64,000 nt of DNA from an archaeon (GTDB lineage: Archaea > Undinarchaeota > Undinarchaeia > Undinarchaeales > JBDRKL01): positions 89,170-153,169 of the forward strand of contig JBDRKL010000012.1 in the NCBI GenBank assembly GCA_043814055.1, written 5' to 3'. Below, piece after piece: positions 1,918 to 64,000 of this stretch. Below the pieces are notes generated by a model. It was not told the DNA's origin, did no database searches, and worked only from the letters and a program-made list of their open reading frames with translations. Positions within the stretch are counted from its first letter, which is position 1; every line of letters starts with the position of its first letter. A program made the position numbers and the translations under genes.

Positions 1918-3954
1918 ATGGAGAGAGATCCAATAGAACGATTTGAGGAATTTTTCCGAGAGAAATACTACGACGACCTACTGAAGGTTGCGCGTGAATA
2001 CCCTGACAAGAAATCTCTTGTCGTGGACTACGCGGAGCTGGACAAGCACGATGTTGAGCTGGCTGATCTGCTTCTCAAGGACCCAGAGGAGACCTTCAAG
2101 ATTGCCAAGGACGCCCTGATGGAGATTGACCTCCCTATTGAGGGAATCTACAGTATAAATGTGCGCTTCAAGAACTTGCCGAGCTCCCAGAACATAAATA
2201 TCCGCGACGTCAGGTCAGAGCACATAGACCACCTCATAACGCTTGAAGGGCTTGTGAAGAGTGCGGCGGACGTGAGGCCTGAGGCGATTAGGGTTGTGTA
2301 TGAATGCCCAGACTGCAAGAAGGAAATTGTTGTGGCACAGGGCGGGAAGAAGCTCAAGACCCCGTTTATGTGTGATGACCCGCAATGCGCCAGGAAAGGG
2401 CGGTTCAAACTGCTCAGGGCAGATTTGATTGACACGCAGAGCATAAAGATACAGGAGCCCCCTGAGACGATTATCGGCGGGGAGCAGCCATCACAGCTTT
2501 ACTCACAGCTCAGTGAGGATTTGGTTTCACCTTTTGAGAGGAAGAAGTCGCTGCCTGGAAACAGGGTCAAAATAACCGGAATTCTCAGGAAGAGGGCAAC
2601 GCACACGACTGCCGGCGCGCCCACCACAAGATTTGACTTGTATCTTGAAGCAAACCACATTGAGACTATTGAGCGCGAGTTTTCAGAGATAGAGCTGAGC
2701 AACAAGGATATTGAGGATATAAAGAAATTGTCAAAGGACAAGAAGCTTTACAAGAAGTTTGTTGATTCGCTTGCACCTTCCATCCAGGGTTATGAGGATG
2801 TGAAGGAGGCCATATTGCTGCAATTGTTCGGCGGGGTTCCTAAGATTCAGCCGGACGGAACCAGAATTAGGGAAAATATTCACTTGTTCCTTGTTGGTGA
2901 CCCAGCTGTTGGTAAGTCACAGCTGCTAAGGTATGTTGCTGAGTTGTCGCCAAAGGGCAGGTTTGTCTCTGGGCGAAAAGCGTCAGGGGTTGGTTTGACA
3001 GCAGCGGTTGTGCGCGATGAATTTGCCGGCGGCTGGACCCTTGAAGCAGGCGCGCTTATCCTTGCAAACAATGGAGTGGCTGCTGTTGACGAGTTTGACA
3101 AGATGGATGACGACGACAGGAGCGCTATGCTGGAAGCCATGGAGCAGGGGACGATTTCCATTGCCAAGGCAGGGATTGTAACAACGCTCAGGGCGAACAC
3201 AACTGTGCTTGCTGCAGCGAATCCAAAGTATGGAAGGTTTGACTTGTACAGGCCGCTACCTGACCAGATTGACTTGTCTCCGGTTATACTGAGCAGGTTT
3301 GACGTAAAGTTTCTGATACAGGACACGCCAGGCAGGGAAGCGGACGAGAAACTCGCTGATCACATTCTTAATTCGTTTATTTCTCCAAAAACTGTTGAGC
3401 CCGTGATAAAGGGGGAGTTCATCAGGAAGTATGTTGCTTACGCAAAGACACATTGCAAGCCAAAGATGACAAGGGAAGCACAAAAAATCATAAAGGACTT
3501 CTATGTGACTTGGAGGGGAAAACACGGCGGCGGGGACAGCGGGGACAACAAAGTTGCGCTTACTCCGAGGCAACTGGAAGCGCTTGTGCGAATGTCAGAA
3601 GCATCTGCCAAGGTGCGGCTTGCTGATAAGGTTACTGTTGAGGATGCGAGGCGCGGCACAAGGTTGCTTGAGTTCTCGCTGAGGCAGCTTGGCACTGAGC
3701 CTGAGACAGGGCAGATTGACATTGACAGGATAGAGGCGGGCACTAGTTCAATGCAGAGAAGCAAGATTTACACCATGCTCACAATTATTGAGGAGATTAC
3801 AAAGGACGTTGGCAAGAATGTTCCGGTTGAGGATATCCTGAAAGAGGCAAAAGACCGCGGCATAGAGGAGCTCGCGGCGCTTGAGCTTATTGGAAAATTA
3901 AAGGAGAAAGGTGATTTGTTTGAGCCAAAACCGGGCTACCTCCAAAAAGCGTAA
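1918..3954 (+). CDS. mcm: MCM replicative helicase
   Basis: Zn-finger region CPDCKKE..CDDPQC, Walker A GDPAVGKSQLL, arginine finger SRFD, and a C-terminal winged-helix tail KGDLFEPKPGYLQKA. Confidence 0.9.
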   Translation: MERDPIERFEEFFREKYYDDLLKVAREYPDKKSLVVDYAELDKHDVELADLLLKDPEETFKIAKDALMEIDLPIEGIYSINVRFKNLPSSQNINIRDVRSEHIDHLITLEGLVKSAADVRPEAIRVVYECPDCKKEIVVAQGGKKLKTPFMCDDPQCARKGRFKLLRADLIDTQSIKIQEPPETIIGGEQPSQLYSQLSEDLVSPFERKKSLPGNRVKITGILRKRATHTTAGAPTTRFDLYLEANHIETIEREFSEIELSNKDIEDIKKLSKDKKLYKKFVDSLAPSIQGYEDVKEAILLQLFGGVPKIQPDGTRIRENIHLFLVGDPAVGKSQLLRYVAELSPKGRFVSGRKASGVGLTAAVVRDEFAGGWTLEAGALILANNGVAAVDEFDKMDDDDRSAMLEAMEQGTISIAKAGIVTTLRANTTVLAAANPKYGRFDLYRPLPDQIDLSPVILSRFDVKFLIQDTPGREADEKLADHILNSFISPKTVEPVIKGEFIRKYVAYAKTHCKPKMTREAQKIIKDFYVTWRGKHGGGDSGDNKVALTPRQLEALVRMSEASAKVRLADKVTVEDARRGTRLLEFSLRQLGTEPETGQIDIDRIEAGTSSMQRSKIYTMLTIIEEITKDVGKNVPVEDILKEAKDRGIEELAALELIGKLKEKGDLFEPKPGYLQKA

Positions 3955-3956
3955 GA

Positions 3957-4023
3957 TAGGGGCTTCGCGAACTAAAGTGAGCGAACGCCCCAGCTCTACC
4001 TCCGCGAGCAGGCGGAGTGATTG
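3957..4023. repeat. Copy 1 of a ~70-nt structured intergenic repeat (GGCTTCGCGAACTAAAGTGAGCGAACGCC...CTCCGCGAGCAGGCGGAG)
   Basis: Contains the palindrome TTCGCGAA and the hairpin CTCCGC/GCGGAG. Two related copies lie at 43916-44085. Confidence 0.6.
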
Positions 4024-13063: not shown

Positions 13064-13182
13064 GGGGGTGTGGTCTAGTTTGGTATGATACTTGCTTTGG
13101 GAGCAAGTGGTCCCCAGTTCAAAGGCGTGCGAAGCGTGACTTAACATGCGCTTGTGCGTGGAAAATCTGGGCACCCCCACCA
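13064..13182 (+). tRNA. tRNA-Pro (anticodon TGG) with a ~42-nt intron in the T-loop and encoded CCA
   Basis: Acceptor GGGGGTG/CACCCCC, D-loop AGTTTGGTA, anticodon arm CTTGC-TTTGGGA-GCAAG, T-stem CCCAG (13113-17)/CTGGG (13167-71) split by an insertion at 13124-13165. Discriminator A then CCA. Confidence 0.7.
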
Positions 13183-13288
13183 CTCCGCCTAGCCGCGGAG
13201 AAAGGCTGTCCCGCATCACACAACACACACTCGTGTGTGTGCATAAATCACCGCAATGCGGTGATTCATGTTTGTGATGCTGCGGGAC
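13183..13288. terminator. Nested long palindrome between the convergent tRNA-Pro and tmk genes, candidate bidirectional terminator or structured RNA
   Basis: CTCCGC..GCGGAG hairpin (13183-13200), then GTCCCGCATCACA...TGTGATGCTGCGGGAC (13208-13288) enclosing CACACACTCGTGTGTGTG and AATCACCGCAATGCGGTGATT. Confidence 0.5.
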
Positions 13289-13305
13289 TACTGGACAAGT
13301 ACATC

Positions 13306-25846: not shown

Positions 25847-26033
25847 GGATCCGTAGCCTAGTCTGGATAAGGCGACAGCCTTCTAACAACCGCAAAATCG
25901 GTTGACGCTTTGGGTCGCATTCCGCTTCGCGGAAGCGACCCGGCTCGCGCGTTCGCACGCGCTCGCTCGGTCAATTCGAGCAAGTTGGTTGGAAGCCAGC
26001 TGTAAATCAGGGGTTCAAATCCCCTCGGATCCA
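25847..26033 (+). tRNA. tRNA-Arg (anticodon TCT) with a 112-nt intron at canonical position 37/38
   Basis: Acceptor GGATCCG/CGGATCC, D-arm GCCT-AGTCTGGATA-AGGC, anticodon stem ACAGC (25875-79) with loop CTTCTA|A, 3' stem GCTGT at 25999-26003, T-arm AGGGG-TTCAAAT-CCCCT. Intron ~25886-25997. Confidence 0.8.
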
Positions 26034-26047
26034 CTCAAACCTAAAAT

Positions 26048-26297
26048 GGGCCAGTAGCCTAGTCTGGATACGAGGCGGAAGCAAGCTCCCGCTTGTTTCC
26101 AGCTCCGCTGGAAAAGGCGTCAGGCTTCGGACCAGCGGCAAATTCATTTGCTCTGGAAGGATACCTGAAGACCGAGGGTTCAAAACTCCGCCGCTGCGGA
26201 GGATAGCAGGGGGCTTGGTTAAAACCGAGCATTCCGCCAAAAGCGGAAGCCCCCTATAAAATGCAGCGCCGGACTGAAAATCCCTTCTGGCCCACCA
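26048..26297 (+). tRNA. tRNA-Arg (anticodon TCG) with three apparent introns (D-arm, anticodon 37/38, T-loop) and encoded CCA
   Basis: Acceptor GGGCCAG/CTGGCCC, D-stem GCCT, D-loop AGTCTGGATA, then a 44-nt insert (26071-26114) before AGGC-G. Anticodon stem TCAGG (26120-24) with loop CTTCGG, a ~32-nt insert, then A-CCTGA (26163-68). T-stem GAGGG (26174-78) pairs CCCTT (26282-86) across a ~90-nt insert. Confidence 0.6.
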
Positions 26298-26333
26298 TAA
26301 TCATTAAAACCAAGGAAAACCTACGGGAAAACA

Positions 26334-28496
26334 ATGGCAAAGAAAGAAAAGTCAAAAAAAGCGGTAAAGAAGAAGGTAATGCCGAAAACTCTAAAGAAGA
26401 AGGCAGCCATTAAGAAGAAACTAGTAGTGAAGAAGAAAGCTTTGATTAAGAAAAAAATTGTAGTGAAGAAGAAACCAGTGTCTAAGAAGAAAGTGACACC
26501 AAAGAAGAAGGTTTCAAAACCAAAGAAAGCCCTTGCAAAGAAAAAGCTGGTGGTGAAAAAGAAAGCTGCAAAACCGAAAGCCAAAAAGGCAGCGATTAAG
26601 AAGAAACCGGTAAAAGCAAAGAAAACTGTGAAGAAGACAACAGTTAAGAAGAAGGTTTCAATAAAAAAGAAGGCTGTAAAAGCCAAGAAAAAAGCAGCAA
26701 AACCTAAGAAGCCGCCGGAACCAAAAGAAGAGCAAGAACCTGAGAAACCAAATGAACCTACCTATGACCCGTGGCAGGAACTAAAGAATCAGGCACAAGC
26801 AGCGATTGAAGAAGCTGTGAAGACCGCGAAGATTAAGGTTCCATCAGAGGTAAATTTTGCAACTGCGATTGAAGAGCCGCCAAGCGCCAAGATGGGAGAT
26901 GTGGCTTGTAGCATTGCGTTTTCATTGGGAAGAGCATCTAAGAAGAACCCAAGACAGCTTGCGGAACTGCTCATATCAAAAGTAAAGAAGCCGCCAATTT
27001 TCAAGAAGGTTGCGCTCGCAGGAGCGTACATCAATTTCTTTCTGGATCACGATAAGTTCGCAAAGCACATTCTTGCAAAGGTTGTTGACGACGATTATGG
27101 CCGGGGAGGGAAGAAGGGCGACAAGGTAATGGCAGAGTTCTGCCAGGTTAACACGCACAAGGCGTTTCATATTGGGCATATTAGGGGAACCATACTTGGC
27201 GAGACTATTTCACGCATTTTGGAGTACAGCGGGTATGAAGTTGTGAGAGCAAATTACCAAGGGGACATTGGCTCGCACGTTGCAAAGTGGATGTGGTATT
27301 ATAACAAGTTCAAGAGTGGAGAGAGCCCGCATGGCAAGGGGGAAACCTGGCTTGCTAATATTTACCGGGCTGCCACGCAGGAGCTAAGGGAGCACCCTGA
27401 ATACGAGAAAGAGACCAGCGAGATTCTGCAGAAGCTTGAAGCCGGTGAAGATGAAAAACTGATGCAGGCCTGGCGGGAAACTCGGCAGTGGTCGCTTGAT
27501 GAGTATGAGAAAATTTACAAAGAGCTTGACGTGCGATTTGACCGATATTTCTTTGAGAGCGAGATGGGAAACTCTGGCAAGGAAATCGTGGACGAACTGC
27601 TCAAGAAAAAGATTGCAAAGATGAGCGAGGGCGCTATTGTGATAAATTTGGAGAAGTTTGGGCTCGGAACGTATCTTTTGCTTAAGAGCGACGGGACCGC
27701 GCTTTATTCCACCAAGGACCTGGCGCTTGCAAAGGCTAAGTTTGAAGAGTTTGGAATTGATATTTCACTTTATGTTGTTGGATCAGAGCAGCGGCTTTAT
27801 TTCCAGCAGCTGTTCAAGACGCTTGAGCTGATGGGCTTCAAGCGCGCGAAGAAGTGCCACCATCTTGCTTTTGACCTGATAAGCCTGAAGGAAGGCAAGA
27901 TGTCCTCAAGGGAAGGTACTGCCATTTTATATTCTGAGCTGAGAGACGGGATGTTCAAGAGGGCGCTTGAAGAAGTTATGGAAAGAAATCCGGAGATGGA
28001 CCCGCACGAACAGAAGATCATTGCGAATAAAGTTGCGTACGGCGCGATGAAGTTTGACATACTTAACATAAACAACAACAAGACAATATTCTTTGACTGG
28101 GAAAAAGCACTTGAATTTGAGGGCGAGACCGCGCCTTATGTGCAGTACGCCGGAGTTCGATGCAAGAGAATACTTGAGAAGGCTGGAAAAGTGCCTGAGA
28201 CTGGAAAAGTTGACTTCGGAAAGCTGAAGCTTGCAGCAGAGCACGAGCTTGTCAAGATGCTCGCGAGATTCCCTGGGGTTATTGCCACGGCTGCGAAGGA
28301 GTACAAACCGCACTTCATTGCGAATTATGTATATGGGCTAGCTGACAAGTTTAGCACTTTCTATACCGAGGCGCCTATAATGGACGCGGGAGATAAGGCA
28401 ACAAAAGATGCTCGGCTTATGCTGCTAAGCGCAACATATAAAACCCTTGAGAAAGCCCTATATCTGCTCGGAATAGAAATTCCTGAGCGTATGTAA
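26334..28496 (+). CDS. argS: Arginyl-tRNA synthetase with a ~145-aa polylysine N-terminal extension
   Basis: Class I HIGH motif (AFHIGHIRG), KMSK-like GKMSSREG, and a DALR anticodon-binding C-terminus. The N-terminus is KKK(L/I)VVKKK repeats. The antisense ORF 26321..26686 is an artefact of the repeats. Confidence 0.9.
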   Translation: MAKKEKSKKAVKKKVMPKTLKKKAAIKKKLVVKKKALIKKKIVVKKKPVSKKKVTPKKKVSKPKKALAKKKLVVKKKAAKPKAKKAAIKKKPVKAKKTVKKTTVKKKVSIKKKAVKAKKKAAKPKKPPEPKEEQEPEKPNEPTYDPWQELKNQAQAAIEEAVKTAKIKVPSEVNFATAIEEPPSAKMGDVACSIAFSLGRASKKNPRQLAELLISKVKKPPIFKKVALAGAYINFFLDHDKFAKHILAKVVDDDYGRGGKKGDKVMAEFCQVNTHKAFHIGHIRGTILGETISRILEYSGYEVVRANYQGDIGSHVAKWMWYYNKFKSGESPHGKGETWLANIYRAATQELREHPEYEKETSEILQKLEAGEDEKLMQAWRETRQWSLDEYEKIYKELDVRFDRYFFESEMGNSGKEIVDELLKKKIAKMSEGAIVINLEKFGLGTYLLLKSDGTALYSTKDLALAKAKFEEFGIDISLYVVGSEQRLYFQQLFKTLELMGFKRAKKCHHLAFDLISLKEGKMSSREGTAILYSELRDGMFKRALEEVMERNPEMDPHEQKIIANKVAYGAMKFDILNINNNKTIFFDWEKALEFEGETAPYVQYAGVRCKRILEKAGKVPETGKVDFGKLKLAAEHELVKMLARFPGVIATAAKEYKPHFIANYVYGLADKFSTFYTEAPIMDAGDKATKDARLMLLSATYKTLEKALYLLGIEIPERM

Positions 28497-28511
28497 TAGA
28501 GACAAAAGTGT

Positions 28512-28694
28512 GCCAGGGTAGCCTAGTTTGGATAAGGCGACAGCCTCCTAACAGCGGCAAATTCCGCTGGCAAATTGGGCCGCATTCGGCTTTCAGCCGA
28601 AGCGACCCGGCCCGCTGCGCGGGCAAAAGCCAATAGCGGAAAGCTGATGGAAGCAAGCTGTAAGTCGAGGGTTCAAATCCCTCCTCTGGTGCCA
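28512..28694 (+). tRNA. tRNA-Arg (anticodon CCT) with a 105-nt intron at 37/38 and encoded CCA
   Basis: Acceptor GCCAGGG/CTCTGGT (two G-U pairs), D-arm GCCT-AGTTTGGATA-AGGC, anticodon stem ACAGC with loop CTCCTA|A, 3' stem GCTGT (28657-61), T-arm GAGGG-TTCAAAT-CCCTC. Intron 28551-28655. Confidence 0.75.
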
Positions 28695-28699
28695 TAATA

Positions 28700-29182
28700 A
28701 TGACCTTAGTAGACGAATGCAAAATAAGGGACGCAGCGCCTGAAGATGTTGATGCAATCATAGAACTGTACAAGGAAGCCCTAGTCCCGATATGGGACAG
28801 GATACACAGGCCCTATGACCTTGTTAGGCTAAGGAGAACGCTTGAGAAACGGTTTGAAAAAGGGCATAGCGGTCTGGTGGTTGTTAGGGAGAACAAGATT
28901 ATTGGGTGCGTTCTGACCGCACTGCGAACCGGGAAGATATCCAATAAAAAAGTAATGAAAATATCGTCTCTTCTGGTCAAGCCGGAATTTTTTGGGAAAG
29001 GCTTAGGCCAGGAACTCATTAGAATCGTAGAAGACACAGCAAGGCAAAATGGCGTGGAGCGGATAAGACTGAAGTGCGCCTATAAGAACACTGCACTGGA
29101 GTTCTACAACAAAATGGGTTTTCAGGAAGACCAGATAAGCTTTATCAAGGAGCTAAAAACAAAAAAAGCCCCCGTAGTCTAG
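28700..29182 (+). CDS. GNAT family N-acetyltransferase (160 aa)
   Basis: Acetyl-CoA binding motif region (Q/R)xxGxG/A: FGKGLGQELIRIV. Its last ~15 nt overlap the 5' end of tRNA-Arg(GCG). Confidence 0.7.
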   Translation: MTLVDECKIRDAAPEDVDAIIELYKEALVPIWDRIHRPYDLVRLRRTLEKRFEKGHSGLVVVRENKIIGCVLTALRTGKISNKKVMKISSLLVKPEFFGKGLGQELIRIVEDTARQNGVERIRLKCAYKNTALEFYNKMGFQEDQISFIKELKTKKAPVV

Positions 29183-29241
29183 TTTGGATAGGATGTGAGC
29201 TTGCGGAGCTCGAGGCTTGGGTTCAAATCCCGACGGGGGCA
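29168..29241 (+). tRNA. tRNA-Arg (anticodon GCG), intron-less
   Basis: Acceptor GCCCCCG/CGGGGGC, D-arm GTCT-AGTTTGGATA-GGAT, anticodon arm TGAGC-TTGCGGA-GCTCG, T-arm TTGGG-TTCAAAT-CCCGA, discriminator A. Confidence 0.8.
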
Positions 29242-30717
29242 CTAATGTTTTCTTTTACTAAAACTCTTTTTGAACTCGTGGCGCCAGAGCTTGTCGCGGA
29301 ATGACTTTCGCTTTGAGTTGAAAAAGAAGACTGCAGCTATTATGAGGAGTATTACAACAGCTAAAAGCAGTTTTCCGCCTAAGGAGTCCAGCAACCTGAC
29401 CGGTTTTTCCTCAATTACAAATGCTGCAGATTCGCTCTCCGCAAGCCGCTGTTCATCCACAAGAATCGTGACCTTGAGCAAGTGGTCGCCAGGCGCTTCT
29501 GGGATGTCCCAGACGCTCAACACATCCTTTTTCTCGCCCCTGAGAAGCGTGAATGAATTAAAACCAATTTTATAAGAGTCCATATAGAAGTTTACCGTGC
29601 CCTGAATGTCAATGTTTCCTGTGTTCTCAAGCGCGGCAACCAAATCTACTTGGTCTCCAATGTACGCGGAGCTGGCGTTGAGCTTGAGGCCGGCAAGTAA
29701 TTTCTTTTCTTCCGCGACTGTGAAAGTCTTTGCGCACTTGCCCTTGTTGCCATACTCATCAGTTGCCTCTGCCTTTGCAGTGTACTGGCCGGGAGGGTCC
29801 TGCTTGCTTATCGGGGCTTCAAAAGAGAAGTGGCCGTTGCTATCTGAGATTGCGTCATATGTTGTTGAGATGTCCTCTGAGGTTGTAAACCAGGATTTTG
29901 TGCTTATTTTATCAAGTGGCTCGTCGTGCACATTGTCTATGGTTCCAAAGAGGACCACAACACCGCCTGGGTTTATGTTTGTCTTCTGGAGAGAACACGC
30001 CATCTTGAGCTCATCCGTGACAATGATGTCATCAATGATGGAGGTTCTTGCGTTCCCGTAGTTGTCAAGAAAGTTTGCTTCTAGTGAATATGTTCCAGGA
30101 GGGTCTGACGCTTTGAATGTGTAAGCGTAGGATATGTAGCCGTTCTTAAGGTCTGCGGAATCTGTAACAATGCCACCCAGACCGGACTCCTCAAGGCTTA
30201 TGGACGCTTTGCCCTCTACCGGGAACCCGTGGGCGTTAAGGACTATACTGCTGAACTCAAGGGTTTCGCCTCGGTTGAAGATGCGAGCGTTTATGCTACG
30301 CTCAACAAAGAGGTTCTCGGTTATGGTGAATTTGCCAGAGTAAAAATCTGCATAGGAATCGTAGCCGGTCTTTATCTTTACCTTGATTCTCCAGTCGTCC
30401 GCGGTGTTTATGGTGCTGGTTACGTCCCAGAGGAGTGTGCCCTTGGTGATTAGAGAGAATGAAACTGGGGTGTCTGCGAGGAAGGAGTATATTTTAGTGG
30501 TTATTGGAATTTCCTGGGAAGTAGAGTCGCTCACAGCAAGGAACTGGACCTCAGAGCCTGGAATGTTCTCGCCGAGCTCAATTGTTCCAGTAATCACGAT
30601 TTGGTCGCCGTAGTTGAACGTGCTGTTCGCCCGCGGGTTTGAAACTGTCATTCCAGCGTGAGCCCCGGATAGCACGATTAGAAATAACACTAGGGCGCAT
30701 AATGCAAGCTTTTTCAT
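29242..30717 (-). CDS. Secreted / cell-surface protein with N-terminal signal peptide and C-terminal TM anchor (491 aa)
   Basis: MKKLALCALVLFLIVLSGAHA signal and a C-terminal LLLAVVILLIIAAVFFF anchor followed by a basic tail. Beta-rich repeats suggest Ig/CARDB-like domains. Confidence 0.5.
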   Translation of the reverse strand: MKKLALCALVLFLIVLSGAHAGMTVSNPRANSTFNYGDQIVITGTIELGENIPGSEVQFLAVSDSTSQEIPITTKIYSFLADTPVSFSLITKGTLLWDVTSTINTADDWRIKVKIKTGYDSYADFYSGKFTITENLFVERSINARIFNRGETLEFSSIVLNAHGFPVEGKASISLEESGLGGIVTDSADLKNGYISYAYTFKASDPPGTYSLEANFLDNYGNARTSIIDDIIVTDELKMACSLQKTNINPGGVVVLFGTIDNVHDEPLDKISTKSWFTTSEDISTTYDAISDSNGHFSFEAPISKQDPPGQYTAKAEATDEYGNKGKCAKTFTVAEEKKLLAGLKLNASSAYIGDQVDLVAALENTGNIDIQGTVNFYMDSYKIGFNSFTLLRGEKKDVLSVWDIPEAPGDHLLKVTILVDEQRLAESESAAFVIEEKPVRLLDSLGGKLLLAVVILLIIAAVFFFNSKRKSFRDKLWRHEFKKSFSKRKH

Positions 30718-43818: not shown

Positions 43819-43915
43819 AGCCCCGTGGTGTAGTGGCCAAGCATACGAGCCTCTGGAGGGTTTTAAAACTCAGGGTGAGCTGGTGACAACGGTTCGAATC
43901 CGTTCGGGGCTACCA
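43819..43915 (+). tRNA. tRNA-Gln (anticodon CTG) with a ~21-nt intron at 37/38 and encoded CCA
   Basis: Acceptor AGCCCCG/CGGGGCT, D-arm GTGT-AGTGGCCAA-GCAT, anticodon stem CGAGC with loop CTCTGG|(intron AGGGTTTTAAAACTCAGGGTG)|A, 3' stem GCTGG (one G-G mismatch), T-arm AACGG-TTCGAAT-CCGTT. Confidence 0.6.
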
Positions 43916-44095
43916 TAAAAACATAACAAGGTGACTTCGCGAACAAAGTGAGCGAATGTCGCCTAAAGCGCCAGCCGATTTCGCGGCTGTTCGCCAATCC
44001 GTTCGGGGCTACCATAACAGATAGAGGCTTCGCGACTAAAAGGAGCGAATGCATCCGGCCTAACTCCGCGGCCAGGCGGAGCGTGTGGGGCTACC
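43916..44095. repeat. Two tandem units made of a ~70-nt structured repeat plus a duplicated tRNA-Gln 3' end (att-scar-like)
   Basis: A 22-nt exact copy of the tRNA 3' end AATCCGTTCGGGGCTACCATAA lies at 43996-44017, and a 10-nt copy GGGGCTACCA at 44086-44095. The spacers carry the CTTCGCGA(AC)..AAAG(T)GAGCGAA and CTCCGCG..CAGGCGGAG motifs shared with 3957-4023. Confidence 0.6.
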
Positions 44096-44106
44096 AAAAA
44101 ACTAAA

Positions 44107-45234
44107 ATGATAACCGAGGACGAATGCTTTGAAATTTGGGACAAGATACGATTAGACCATCGTGTTAGGGCGCACTCCAAGATTGTCAAACAGAACTCTG
44201 TAACTATTGCAAAAGAGCTGCAGAGAGCTGGGATAGAAGTGGATATTCCGCTAATAATCGCTGGCGCGCTGCTTCATGATATTGGCCGCTCTGAGTCTCA
44301 TAATGTTGAGCATGGGTACAAAGGAGGGAAAATTCTGCGCAATCTTGGAGTACCTGAGCCGATTTGCAAGATAGCCGAGAGGCACGTTGGGGCAGGGATA
44401 AGCGCTGACGAAGCGCCTGCCCTTGGTTTGCCCGGGGTTGATTTCATTCCAGAGACGCTTGAGGAGAAAATTGTGTGCTACGCAGACTCGCTCATAGACC
44501 ACGACCACATTGTTGATTACGAACTGAAGCTGAGCAGATGGATAACGGAGTTCGGCGAGATTTCCGGGATTGTGAACAGATTTATTTTGCTGAACCAGGA
44601 GCTTAGCAAGTATGCCACTTCCAGCGAGATGAAAGTGGAGGAGGAGTGGGCAAAGAAGAATGGAATGACCATGGCGGACATGATGGAGAACGCAGGGAGT
44701 TCGGTTGCGGAGACCCTTGTTGAGGGAATGGAGCTAAAGGGAAAAGAGGTAGTTGTGCTTTGCGGGCCAGGGAACAACGGAGGCGATGGCTTGGTTGCCG
44801 CGCGCTATTTGAACAAGTTTGCAAAAGTCAGGGTTTTCATGTTCGGGACTCCGAACAGCGAGGAAGCAGCGCATAATCTGGACTTGCTCAAGAAAGGGAA
44901 GGTTGAGATAAAAGAGGTTCACTATTCTGACGAACTTGGAGAAGTTCGAGGCGACATTGTTATTGATGCGCTCATCGGGACAGGGGTTAAGGGAGACATA
45001 AGAAGACCGGCTTCAATCGGCATAAAGAAAATAAATGAGATGAATGCGTATACTGTTTCAATTGACGTACCTTCGGGAGTGAATCCGGATACAGGGGCGG
45101 AGTCAAATCTTTTTGTTAAGCCGGATTTGGTTGTGTGTATTCATAGGTTCAAGAAAGGATTGGTTGGAAAGTACAAGCTTGGGAAGGTAGTTGTTGTTGA
45201 CATCGGGCTTCCTGAGAAACGGCAAGTATTTTAA
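44107..45234 (+). CDS. HD-domain phosphohydrolase fused to a YjeF-N (NAD(P)H-hydrate epimerase) domain
   Basis: N-terminal HD motif LLHDIGRSESH...H. C-terminal VVLCGPGNNGGDGLVAARYL is the YjeF_N signature. The ATG at 44107 was chosen because the listed 43948 start runs through the tRNA-derived repeats. Confidence 0.65.
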   Translation: MITEDECFEIWDKIRLDHRVRAHSKIVKQNSVTIAKELQRAGIEVDIPLIIAGALLHDIGRSESHNVEHGYKGGKILRNLGVPEPICKIAERHVGAGISADEAPALGLPGVDFIPETLEEKIVCYADSLIDHDHIVDYELKLSRWITEFGEISGIVNRFILLNQELSKYATSSEMKVEEEWAKKNGMTMADMMENAGSSVAETLVEGMELKGKEVVVLCGPGNNGGDGLVAARYLNKFAKVRVFMFGTPNSEEAAHNLDLLKKGKVEIKEVHYSDELGEVRGDIVIDALIGTGVKGDIRRPASIGIKKINEMNAYTVSIDVPSGVNPDTGAESNLFVKPDLVVCIHRFKKGLVGKYKLGKVVVVDIGLPEKRQVF

Positions 45235-54281: not shown

Positions 54282-54314
54282 TTTCAAAGTTTCTCCAATT
54301 TCAACAGATTTGAA

Positions 54315-54400
54315 ACTTCGGACGCGCAGCGCAAATTCGCAACAGCGAATTGCGCAACCCGCTTTGCGGGTTGCGTCCGAAGCACGCACACCTTGTGTGC
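54315..54400. ncRNA. Structured element between aspS and the ferredoxin gene, possibly a three-way-junction RNA, terminator or attenuator
   Basis: A 10-bp outer stem CTTCGGACGC (54315-24)/GCGTCCGAAG (54372-81) encloses the hairpins GCGCAAATTCGC..GCGAATTGCGC and AACCCGC-TTT-GCGGGTT. A second hairpin CGCACAC-CTT-GTGTGCG lies at 54383-54400. Confidence 0.4.
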
Positions 54401-54444
54401 GATGTCAGCACGGTCGCAGATTTCAAGGTCTGTGCTTGATTTGA

Positions 54445-63765: not shown

Positions 63766-63948
63766 AGCGGGGTAGGGCAGCCTGGAGTGCCCGCGAGGCT
63801 CATAACAACCTTTTTCCGACCTTCGGCCGCAAAAAGCTTGACCAAAAAGAAATCGCTTTGCGATTTCGTGCCACTGCGCGGCAATTAAAAATCTGCGCAG
63901 AGGGTTGAGAGACACCTCGAGGTCGATGGTTCAAGTCCATCCCCCGCT
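63766..63948 (+). tRNA. tRNA-Met or Ile2 (anticodon CAT) with a ~109-nt intron at 37/38
   Basis: Acceptor AGCGGGG/CCCCGCT, D-arm GGGC-AGCCTGGAGT-GCCC, anticodon stem CGAGG with loop CTCATA|A, 3' stem CCTCG (63914-18), T-arm GATGG-TTCAAGT-CCATC. The anticodon stem lacks the GGG/CCC of initiator tRNA. Confidence 0.7.
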
Positions 63949-64000
63949 ACTAATCACAAAAGTGGCTTCACAAAGTGGAGAGCCACCTTGGGAGGTGCGG

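Follow-up and report, generated by a model that had tools for sequence, protein, structure and literature searches.

Hairpin units homologous to tRNA introns between repeated tRNA-Gln 3' ends in an uncultured archaeon

The stretch analyzed here (64,000 nt of GenBank assembly GCA_043814055.1, contig JBDRKL010000012.1, positions 89,170 to 153,169; hereafter the window, numbered from its first base) belongs to the metagenome-assembled genome (MAG) of an uncultured archaeon and has a G+C content of 47%. Immediately behind its tRNA-Gln(CUG) gene, two short hairpin units (u1 and u2) are each followed by a further copy of the tRNA 3' end, and a third unit (u3) lies behind the MCM gene. Judging from alignments, the units are inverted homologues of tRNA introns. 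The arrangement is tentatively explained by nested insertions of a non-autonomous family of intron-related hairpin elements behind tRNA-Gln, with the tRNA 3'-end copies as junction duplications of variable length; this reading is ranked first among those considered, and it falls a little short of probable. The evidence covers 64 kb of a single MAG, together with a small number of loci from relatives. The approximately 60 open reading frames (ORFs) of the window were assigned by Pfam to housekeeping functions, including TBP, MCM, topoisomerase VI, ArgRS, ThrRS, SMC/ScpA, and arginine biosynthesis.

Repeated tRNA-Gln 3' ends and hairpin units

The 22-mer AATCCGTTCGGGGCTACCATAA was found exactly twice, at 43897-43918 and 43996-44017, and GGGGCTACCA exactly three times in 64 kb, at 43906, 44005, and 44087. 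By arithmetic estimate, an exact 22-mer would be expected to recur within 100 nt ~1e-11 times. In the window, the TTCGCGA...GAGCGAA core of the units is present in exactly three copies, and the hairpin CTCCGC-N4-6-GCGGAG (H2, located by regular expression) in exactly four, namely in u2, in u3, at the CCA edge of tRNA-Pro, and at the 5' edge of the tRNA-Arg(UCG) T-loop intron, against ~0.02 expected for 12 fixed bases (arithmetic estimate). The repeats and units are exact and non-random.

Several of these features had been described in an earlier reading of the sequence alone (the sequence-only reading), and most of them stand with corrections. The 22-nt exact copy of the tRNA 3' terminus is confirmed as a repeat, although only its first 19 nt (A58-A76) are tRNA-derived, and the TAA at its end is the triplet with which u1, u2, and u3 begin. 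The 10-nt copy exists, at 44087-44096 and not at 44086-44095. A third unit does follow MCM, and it was placed at 3952-4017. The CTCCGCG-N5-GCGGAG hairpin, ascribed to every unit, belongs to u2 and u3, while u1 has CAGCCG-ATTTCG-CGGCTG at 43972-43989 instead, and the box GAGCGAATG, thought to be common to all units, reads GAGCGAACG in the MCM copy. In folding, u1 and u3 surpass their shuffles; u2 does not.

Hairpin 1 is present in u1, u2, and u3 and is composed of an outer 4-7-bp stem, a bulged base, a UUCGC/GCGAA stem, tandem G.A/A.G pairs, a 2-bp distal stem, and a loop of 3-4 nt. It is structurally conserved, with compensatory changes: 97.9% of cells pair across the three units plus an outside copy (27-43% in slid registers), both sides are changed in 4 of the 13 pairs, the covariation score was matched by none of the 500 shuffles, and the tandem G.A/A.G is invariant. 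Units u2 and u3 are co-linear over their full length (67 vs 66 nt; alignment score 62 against a null of 14 +/- 2.5), with the same ends, and both close with H2; u1 and u2 have only the hairpin-1 core in common, and their second hairpins differ. The ends of u2 and u3, TAA(C)AGATAG... and ...GGCGGAG, are non-complementary, so terminal inverted repeats are absent. No family was found for the units in Rfam at a permissive threshold, the matches to RtT (E = 4.1) and isrK (E = 0.29) being noise. A K-turn or C/D-box RNA was rejected on inspection, as there is no 3-nt bulge beside the G.A pairs and there are no C or D boxes.

Unit u3 separates the last codon of MCM from its former TGA stop (4018-4020) and itself supplies the present TAA stop. 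In three relatives without the element (MCM 79%, 68%, and 68% identical), the MCM stop is separated from the signal-peptide-peptidase gene by 13, 17, and ~24 nt, respectively, and excision of 3952-4017 yields ...GCG-TGA + 13 nt + ATG, the arrangement of the closest relative, L024. Because these spacers are short and excision restores the L024 layout, u3 is read from the alignments as a precise, lineage-specific insertion of 66 nt. No direct repeat flanking u3 was found. Within the MCM coding sequence, 9 nt 5' of u3, GGGCTACC (3935-3942) corresponds to 8 nt of the 10-nt tRNA-Gln 3' end; a relative has AGGCTTCC at this place. The sequences adjacent to H2 are also alike, with CGTGTGGGGCTACC in u2, TGGTGGGGGTGCC in the tRNA-Pro copy (minus strand), and TGATTGG in u3. 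Both likenesses could be due to target preference or chance.

The identity of the tRNA gene was verified. The 'tRNA-Pro(tgg)' called by ARAGORN at 43819-43915 is an intron mis-parse, and Rfam alignment, in-silico splicing, and the syntenic genes of relatives all indicate Gln(CUG). The possibility that u1 or u2 serves tRNA-Gln as an alternative 3' exon, or as a half of a split or multi-intron gene, was rejected, since there is no second 5' acceptor strand and no pairing compatible with the bulge-helix-bulge (BHB) fold, and the tRNA is complete. Likewise, u1 does not qualify as a BHB intron; tRNA-Gln is already complete 5' of it, and no BHB position was seen (BHB motifs were judged by inspection only). 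The 4 nt ahead of the second A58 are CGCC, where the T-loop introns of the window pair TTCR with YGAA (TGAA or TGGA). This CGCC filler has no match in the intron homologue or in the tRNA. What follows the first CCA is not copied from the native flank or from the start of the HD/YjeF_N gene (p > 0.1). The deposited annotation has a 428-aa protein (NAD(P)H-hydrate epimerase) at 43948-45234, whose GTG start at 43948 leads to translation of u1 and u2; this was rejected as the real gene start, the homologues being 360-378 aa long and beginning at ATG 44107.

Relation to tRNA introns and distribution of the family

Homology was evaluated by local alignment against 1000 shuffles, with both orientations scored. 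All comparisons with introns gave scores of 31-40 against nulls of 13-16 +/- 2-2.6 (z ~9) in the inverted orientation, whereas same-orientation scores were at the null level. The reverse complement of u1, rc(u1), matched the tRNA-Arg(UCU) intron with a score of 40 (null 16 +/- 2.6), with 23 of the 27 positions identical over the first 27 nt (25885-25911), and ran on into the same bulged hairpin; it is also homologous to the 5' part of the tRNA-Arg(CCU) intron. In turn, rc(u3) matched the T-loop intron of tRNA-Arg(UCG) (31 vs 13.5 +/- 2), rc(u2) the tRNA-Pro trailer (33), and rc(u1-u3) the T-loop intron of a tRNA-Leu gene from outside the lineage (L020; 36-40). None of the 1000 shuffles reached the score for rc(u1) against the tRNA-Arg(UCU) intron or for any of these three comparisons. 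In the Arg(UCG) T-loop intron, H2 (26186-26201) occupies the 5' edge; next come GATAG and a GGGGGC...GCCCCC stem-loop ending in ...GCCCC(C)TAT. The strand that bears the G.A pairs, and on which the only G.U pairs lie, is transcribed in 5 of the 6 non-intron copies and antisense in all four intron copies. On these alignments, the units are inverted homologues of tRNA introns.

Seven tRNA genes were identified in the window, six of them with introns. Three, tRNA-Pro(UGG), tRNA-Arg(UCG), and tRNA-Met(CAU), were missed by ARAGORN and by Rfam at the gathering threshold because their introns are non-canonical or multiple; the splice junctions of the multi-intron genes were set by hand, with a possible error of 1-2 bases. 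The family shows a strong association with tRNA genes in the window, with the two tRNA-Gln trailer copies, related modules in three tRNA-Arg introns, the tRNA-Pro hairpin, and the tRNA-Met hairpin (Table 1). The covariance model used to score them was built from u1-u3 and the L020 copy only, the Arg introns being left out of training.

Table 1. Coordinates of the tRNA-Gln locus, the hairpin units, and family-related tRNA features in the window.
Feature	Position	Strand	Evidence or remark
tRNA-Gln(CUG), CCA encoded	43819-43915	+	Rfam tRNA 44 bits; ARAGORN tRNA-Gln(ctg), 76 nt, after in-silico splicing
tRNA-Gln exon 1	43819-43856	+	
tRNA-Gln canonical intron, 21 nt	43857-43877	+	
tRNA-Gln exon 2	43878-43915	+	
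19-mer copy 1 (A58-A76), within tRNA-Gln	43897-43915	+	
Unit u1, 76 nt	43916-43991	+	TAA immediately 3' of CCA; fold z = -2.98; covariance model 54.5 bits
Hairpin 1 in u1	43929-43964	+	
Hairpin A in u1	43972-43989	+	CAGCCG-ATTTCG-CGGCTG
Filler CGCC, 4 nt, between u1 and tRNA fragment	43992-43995	+	sequence reading
tRNA-Gln 3' end, copy 2 (A58-A76), 19 nt, CCA-terminated	43996-44014	+	identical to 43897-43915
Unit u2, 67 nt, TAACAGATAG...GCGGAG	44015-44081	+	covariance model 53.3 bits; H2 by regular expression
Hairpin 1 in u2	44022-44057	+	
Hairpin H2 in u2	44064-44081	+	CTCCGC-GGCCAG-GCGGAG
Filler CGTGT, 5 nt, after u2	44082-44086	+	sequence reading
tRNA-Gln 3' end, copy 3 (G67-A76), 10 nt, CCA-terminated	44087-44096	+	exact match
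HD/YjeF_N gene, after native flank of copy 3	ATG at 44107		start from 360-378-aa homologues and Pfam
Unit u3, 66 nt, TAAGATAG...GCGGAG	3952-4017	+	fold z = -3.45; covariance model 48.9 bits
Hairpin 1 in u3	3957-3992	+	
Hairpin H2 in u3	4000-4017	+	
tRNA-Pro(UGG), unannotated	13064-13182		T-loop intron 13124-13164, 41 nt; clean Pro call on in-silico splicing
H2 copy abutting CCA of tRNA-Pro(UGG)	13183-13200	+	minus strand 17/18 to H2 of u2; score 33 vs null 13 +/- 2
Hairpin-1 homologue within 114-nt canonical tRNA-Arg(UCU) intron	25912-25941	-	covariance model 17 bits, E = 0.015
tRNA-Arg(UCG)	26048-26297		three introns (D region, anticodon loop, T-loop); clean Arg call on in-silico splicing
tRNA-Arg(UCG) T-loop intron, homologous to rc(u3) and rc(u2)	26185-26280	+	score 31 vs null 13.5 +/- 2
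Hairpin-1 homologue within tRNA-Arg(CCU) intron	28577-28608	-	covariance model 20.8 bits, E = 0.001
tRNA-Met(CAU)	63766-63949		intron ~114 nt
Diverged hairpin-1-like hairpin, 11 nt 3' of tRNA-Met(CAU), tRNA direction	63960-63988	+	covariance model 21.5 bits, E = 7e-4

The gene order around tRNA-Gln (ThrRS ... D-Tyr-tRNA deacylase ... HD/YjeF_N ... ScpA-SMC) is held among relatives, and two of them, L028 and L030, have syntenic tRNA-Gln(CTG) genes without an intron. In L030, the trailer is plain and no unit was found in it. The L028 gene is inverted and lacks tRNA-end repeats, and its trailer contains TTCTCAACGAATGTGAGCGAAT, which matches the u1 hairpin core at 17 of 22 positions in the same orientation (p <= 0.005), the stem being lost. 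The counter-proposal of the sequence-only reading, that relatives share the unit as a conserved tRNA-Gln trailer, is contradicted by L030 and partly matched by the decayed, repeat-less core of L028. The units are not a conserved trailer, and the association between tRNA-Gln and the element may be either old or recurrent. No close copy of the u1-u3/H2 family was detected in the ~128 kb of relatives' loci, where the covariance model found one weak hairpin match (L071, 2005-2034, E = 0.0015). A relative with a 70%-identical ArgRS has the same tRNA-Arg genes, with introns at other positions and of other sequence, and its tRNA-Arg(UCG) has no intron against three in the window. Given the lack of close copies and the shifted tRNA-Arg introns, turnover is therefore rapid.

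The copy from L020 (a MAG labelled Methanosarcinales, label unverified) has the hairpin-1 core at 85-91% identity in the intron orientation, within the T-loop intron of a multi-intron tRNA-Leu(CAA). An 81-nt insert lies there between perfect 13-nt direct repeats, TCAGGGACTGCAC, which are intron sequence, and removal of the insert with one repeat leaves a short, simple intron. Since this repeat is intron sequence, the flanking duplications of the family are not tied to tRNA 3' ends, and their length is variable. The same MAG also has a tRNA-Arg(UCG) with a short T-loop intron (L020, 3031-3140) in a region of 36% G+C; given the T-loop introns, the taxon label is doubtful. A scan of genome contigs for the hairpin-1 pattern gave 23 matches against ~17 by chance (19 fixed bases, arithmetic estimate), all in unrelated taxa except L020. 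Metagenome contigs yielded 36 single matches, with no relative and no tRNA context, and these were treated as chance.

A further structured element of 65 nt was observed 3' of the AspRS/AsnRS-type gene (54300-54420). It consists of an outer stem, TTCGGACGC/GCGTCCGAA, around two hairpins, of which one is an A-bulged TTCGC...GCGAA; a further hairpin follows, and an imperfect direct repeat, CAGATTTGAA / CAGATTTCAA, borders the block. Its relation to the units is weak (covariance model E = 0.14), and with an alignment p of 0.03-0.26, the element (54317-54381) was not accepted as a member of the family. The interval from H2 of tRNA-Pro to the point where the convergent thymidylate kinase gene stops (13201-13305) contains a cruciform-like structure with a stem, GTCCCGCATCACA/TGTGATGC(T)GCGGGAC, around two perfect hairpins, CACACAC..GTGTGTG and TCACCGC..GCGGTGA. 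The ArgRS gene (26334-28496) stands within the set of all four tRNA-Arg genes (25847-29242), with UCU and UCG upstream and CCU and GCG downstream; a relative retains this cluster (three tRNA-Arg genes on a 4.8-kb contig), with different intron positions. The spacer upstream of TBP (1031-1253) is ~130 nt longer than that of the closest relative, folds very strongly (-39 kcal/mol per 70 nt), and has arms that are complementary over a long range. Its counterpart in L071 (1890-2228), which also looks like structured RNA, holds the hairpin-1-like match mentioned above. The TBP spacers may represent unannotated non-coding RNA or further inserted elements.

Origin of the tRNA-end repeats

Under the tentatively favoured explanation, u1, u2, and u3 would be lineage-specific, non-coding, GC-rich hairpin elements of ~66-80 nt without terminal inverted repeats, and the same family would supply much of the sequence of the organism's BHB-type tRNA introns. 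Two different members would have inserted serially right after the encoded CCA, opposite to the orientation of the intron copies, with u2 probably arriving before u1, and u1 entering the space that separates the tRNA from the u2 module. Each insertion would leave a duplicate of the tRNA 3' end on its far side (G67-A76, then A58-A76) together with 4-5 untemplated bases. The repeats would thus represent target duplications made at insertion rather than relics of large integrated elements, and the tRNA gene would be left intact, its proximal copy completing the tRNA. Within tRNA genes, insertions would be expected to survive only where the host splicing endonuclease removes them, and so to become or enlarge introns. 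The flanking repeats measure 0 nt in u3, 10 nt in u2, 13 nt in L020, and 19 nt in u1. Because duplications of 0-19 nt are combined with fillers and a single precise junction, copying-in by repair, template switching, or nick priming would be a more suitable chemistry than a dedicated transposase with its fixed stagger or an integrase, which would require a circle bearing an att site and would leave u3 and L020 unexplained. Moreover, u2 is a full-length copy of u3, and therefore the DNA between the attachment-site (att)-like repeats is a whole element, not a remnant. The miniature tRNA-targeting element family suggested by the sequence-only reading survives here in modified form, as a dispersed, tRNA-associated family of ~66-80 nt, whose units that reading had not recognized as inverted intron sequence.

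Several observations weigh against this explanation. Only four junction sets are informative (u1, u2, u3, and L020), and they are heterogeneous, a duplication being absent from u3. CCA is the exact end point of both duplications at tRNA-Gln, and the T-loop is where one of them starts; as these are classical integrase att boundaries, site-specific recombination could have produced the repeats. If the association seen in L028 is old, it fits poorly with a perfect 22/22 repeat, unless insertion was recurrent or the repeat is maintained by gene conversion. With 58 of the 59 matches from the two public scans being chance-like, L020 is the sole outside relative. Finally, no enzyme was identified among the ~60 ORFs of the window that were scanned.

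The next candidate, which we regard as unlikely, is that the repeats are classical att scars, left when integrase-bearing elements (viruses or plasmids of the T-loop and 3'-end classes) integrated serially at the tRNA-Gln 3' end, generated attL/attR repeats, and were then lost or deleted down to short remnants; this judgement is shared with a variant in which hairpin elements colonized the spaces between the att copies or were mobilized in trans, like cis-mobilizable elements (CIMEs). The sequence-only reading had offered nested att scars as one of its options, and the repeat boundaries do fit it: one repeat covers T-loop position 58 through CCA (+3), the other acceptor position 67 through CCA, and these are known integrase sublocations (PMC1762012; SSV1 and pNOB8 in PMC3293823). 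The gene order near tRNA-Gln is also variable among relatives, as at integration hot spots, and integration, tRNA fragments, and intron gain are tied together in the model of Sugahara et al. 2012 (PMC3293823). On the other hand, Pfam and PHROGs searches of the ~60 window ORFs, including those flanking tRNA-Gln, revealed no integrase, recombinase, transposase, or reverse transcriptase, in agreement with the earlier remark that no integrase is present; no integrase fragment was seen either, and the variable ORF beside the tRNA lacks any recombinase signal. What separates the repeats is in each case one complete element (u2, 67 nt; u1, 76 nt), and two independent deletions down to exactly one element are unlikely. 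In addition, u3 lies away from tRNA genes and has no repeats, the L020 repeat is intron sequence, and an identity block of 10 nt is short for an att core. A circle of 80-100 bp would also be a poor substrate for recombination. Viral scans for the 19-mer and the unit returned only one jumbo-phage tRNA-Ile (a coincidence), and plasmid BLAST of u1+u2 only noise.

Somewhat less probable again is a functional trailer similar to RtT, in which, by analogy, the units would be co-transcribed with tRNA-Gln and the tRNA-end copies would provide ...ACCA ends that release or stabilize trailer RNAs, while hairpin 1 would act as a processing, termination, or protein-binding signal of the lineage's tRNA trailers. 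The compensatory changes and the invariant tandem G.A/A.G of hairpin 1 are consistent with such a role, as is the fact that the strand with the G.A pairs and the only G.U pairs is the transcribed one behind tRNA-Gln, tRNA-Met, and MCM. The E. coli tyrT/tyrV units end in the same A58-A76 19-mer, and the rttR RNA ends exactly at its first copy; behind the tRNA-Gln gene of a relative, the trailer retains the core in unchanged orientation, and u2 is predicted to be foldable as a minihelix with a free ACCA tail. However, the fold of u2 is no better than that of shuffles (z = -0.69), u1 and u2 are not copies of one unit, and the Rfam RtT score is noise (14.2 bits vs a gathering threshold of 45, E = 4.1). 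The L028 copy has lost its stem, L030 has nothing, and the element also occurs inverted within introns and behind a protein gene.

An improbable alternative holds that the units are DNA copies of intron-family RNA, made by reverse transcription primed by the CCA-3'OH of tRNA-Gln or by a nick there. This would explain the start of the units right after CCA, their antisense orientation, the fillers at the far junctions only, the variable duplications, and the 19-nt piece reaching to A58. In retroviral primer-binding sites, a modified T-loop base (A58) stops second-strand copying of the tRNA primer. By this principle (PMC8599865), 18 nt are expected for a stop at m1A58. The 19-mer is 1 nt longer, which counts against reverse transcription. 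As to nick- or tRNA-primed retroposition, the CCA/TAA junction is precise, the fillers are CGCC and CGTGT, the duplications measure 0-19 nt, and a reverse transcriptase was not seen in the window. If this account were true, archaeal tRNA introns would spread via retroposition of excised intron RNA.

Tandem duplication of a tRNA gene is the traditional explanation of the E. coli tyrT repeats. A relic of three tandem tRNA-Gln genes, the second and third having lost their 5' parts, is very improbable here: the layout of tRNA, spacer, 3' end, spacer, 3' end and the tyrT parallel would suit it, but u1 and u2 share just the hairpin-1 core and are each nearer to a different intron, the tRNA fragments are still perfect copies, two separate 5' deletions are needed, u2 equals the stand-alone insertion u3, and none of the relatives examined has tandem tRNA-Gln genes.

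Significance and comparison with known systems

Archaeal tRNA introns transpose by an unknown mechanism, probably at the DNA level (PMC4090602), and the one concrete model of intron gain invokes integrase-bearing elements (PMC3293823). The present locus bears on the gain and movement of archaeal BHB tRNA introns, as it displays intron-family sequence outside exons with both junctions readable. One precise insertion, three unequal flanking duplications, the fillers, and a fixed relation to the CCA end make the question testable. From a practical point of view, three of the seven tRNA genes escaped standard tools, and the deposited annotation translates repeat units as a protein N-terminus.

The units resemble repetitive extragenic palindromes and bacterial interspersed mosaic elements (REP/BIME) and the palindrome-associated transposable elements (PATEs) derived from IS200/IS605 in being short, imperfect palindromes without terminal inverted repeats, situated intergenically behind genes; u3 has subterminal hairpins and neither terminal inverted repeats nor a target duplication. 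They differ in that no Y1 transposase or REP-associated tyrosine transposase (RAYT) was seen in the window, in the 10-19-nt duplications flanking u1, u2, and L020, a kind not made by that family, and in their association with tRNAs and introns. As for classical miniature inverted-repeat transposable elements (MITEs), terminal inverted repeats were not found, and the duplication length is not fixed (0, 10, 13, or 19); three close copies plus intron and trailer relatives occur in 64 kb, and no autonomous partner was seen there.

Integrase att duplications are known to reach from the T-loop or acceptor arm to the tRNA 3' end, and class II integrases exchange strands in the T-loop, where att identity blocks start (PMC1762012). 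Serial direct repeats of the 3' part of a tRNA are shared with them (SSV1/pNOB8-type archaeal elements, Ms6 of class II, and bacterial CIME accretion; PMC1762012; PMC3293823). The differences are that the window contains no integrase, that the inserts of 72-80 nt equal one mini-element, that u3 has no repeats, and that the L020 repeat is not a tRNA end.

According to the summary of Fujishima et al. (2010) in PMC4090602, near-identical introns occur at different positions in different tRNA genes of Thermoproteales, with rapid gain and loss among close relatives, as in the present family. In Caldiarchaeum, integrating elements have been linked with both tRNA fragments and the gain of introns (Sugahara et al. 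2012, PMC3293823), and the likeness to that model is that tRNA fragments adjoin the inserted DNA. Those cases, however, lie inside tRNA genes or beside a 1.8-kb recombinase-bearing insert, whereas the sequences described here are outside exons, inverted, and 66-76 nt long, with readable junctions. The lineage is DPANN-like (Undinarchaeota-related), not Thermoproteales or Caldiarchaeum.

The closest known layout is that of the E. coli tyrT/rtT repeats. A check of the NC_000913.3 sequence showed six occurrences of the tRNA-Tyr 19-mer, the first of the downstream copies marking the end of rttR. A tyrT unit (NC_000913.3, 1286300-1287800) has GGGGAAGGAT, which is complementary to part of its 19-mer. 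The E. coli system is bacterial and consists of near-identical tandem copies of one 178-bp unit, whereas the archaeal locus has two dissimilar members of 67-76 nt from a dispersed, intron-forming family, with a second tRNA fragment of 10 nt, and its match to RF00391 is not significant (14.2 bits vs 45). What the two have in common is the boundary: the 178-bp repeats of tyrT-tyrV/rtT (rttR) end in the last 19 nt of the tRNA, AATCCTTCCCCCACCACCA (A58-A76 of tRNA-Tyr), with the same limits from A58 to CCA76 (AATCC...CCA) as the longer repeat behind the archaeal tRNA-Gln gene.

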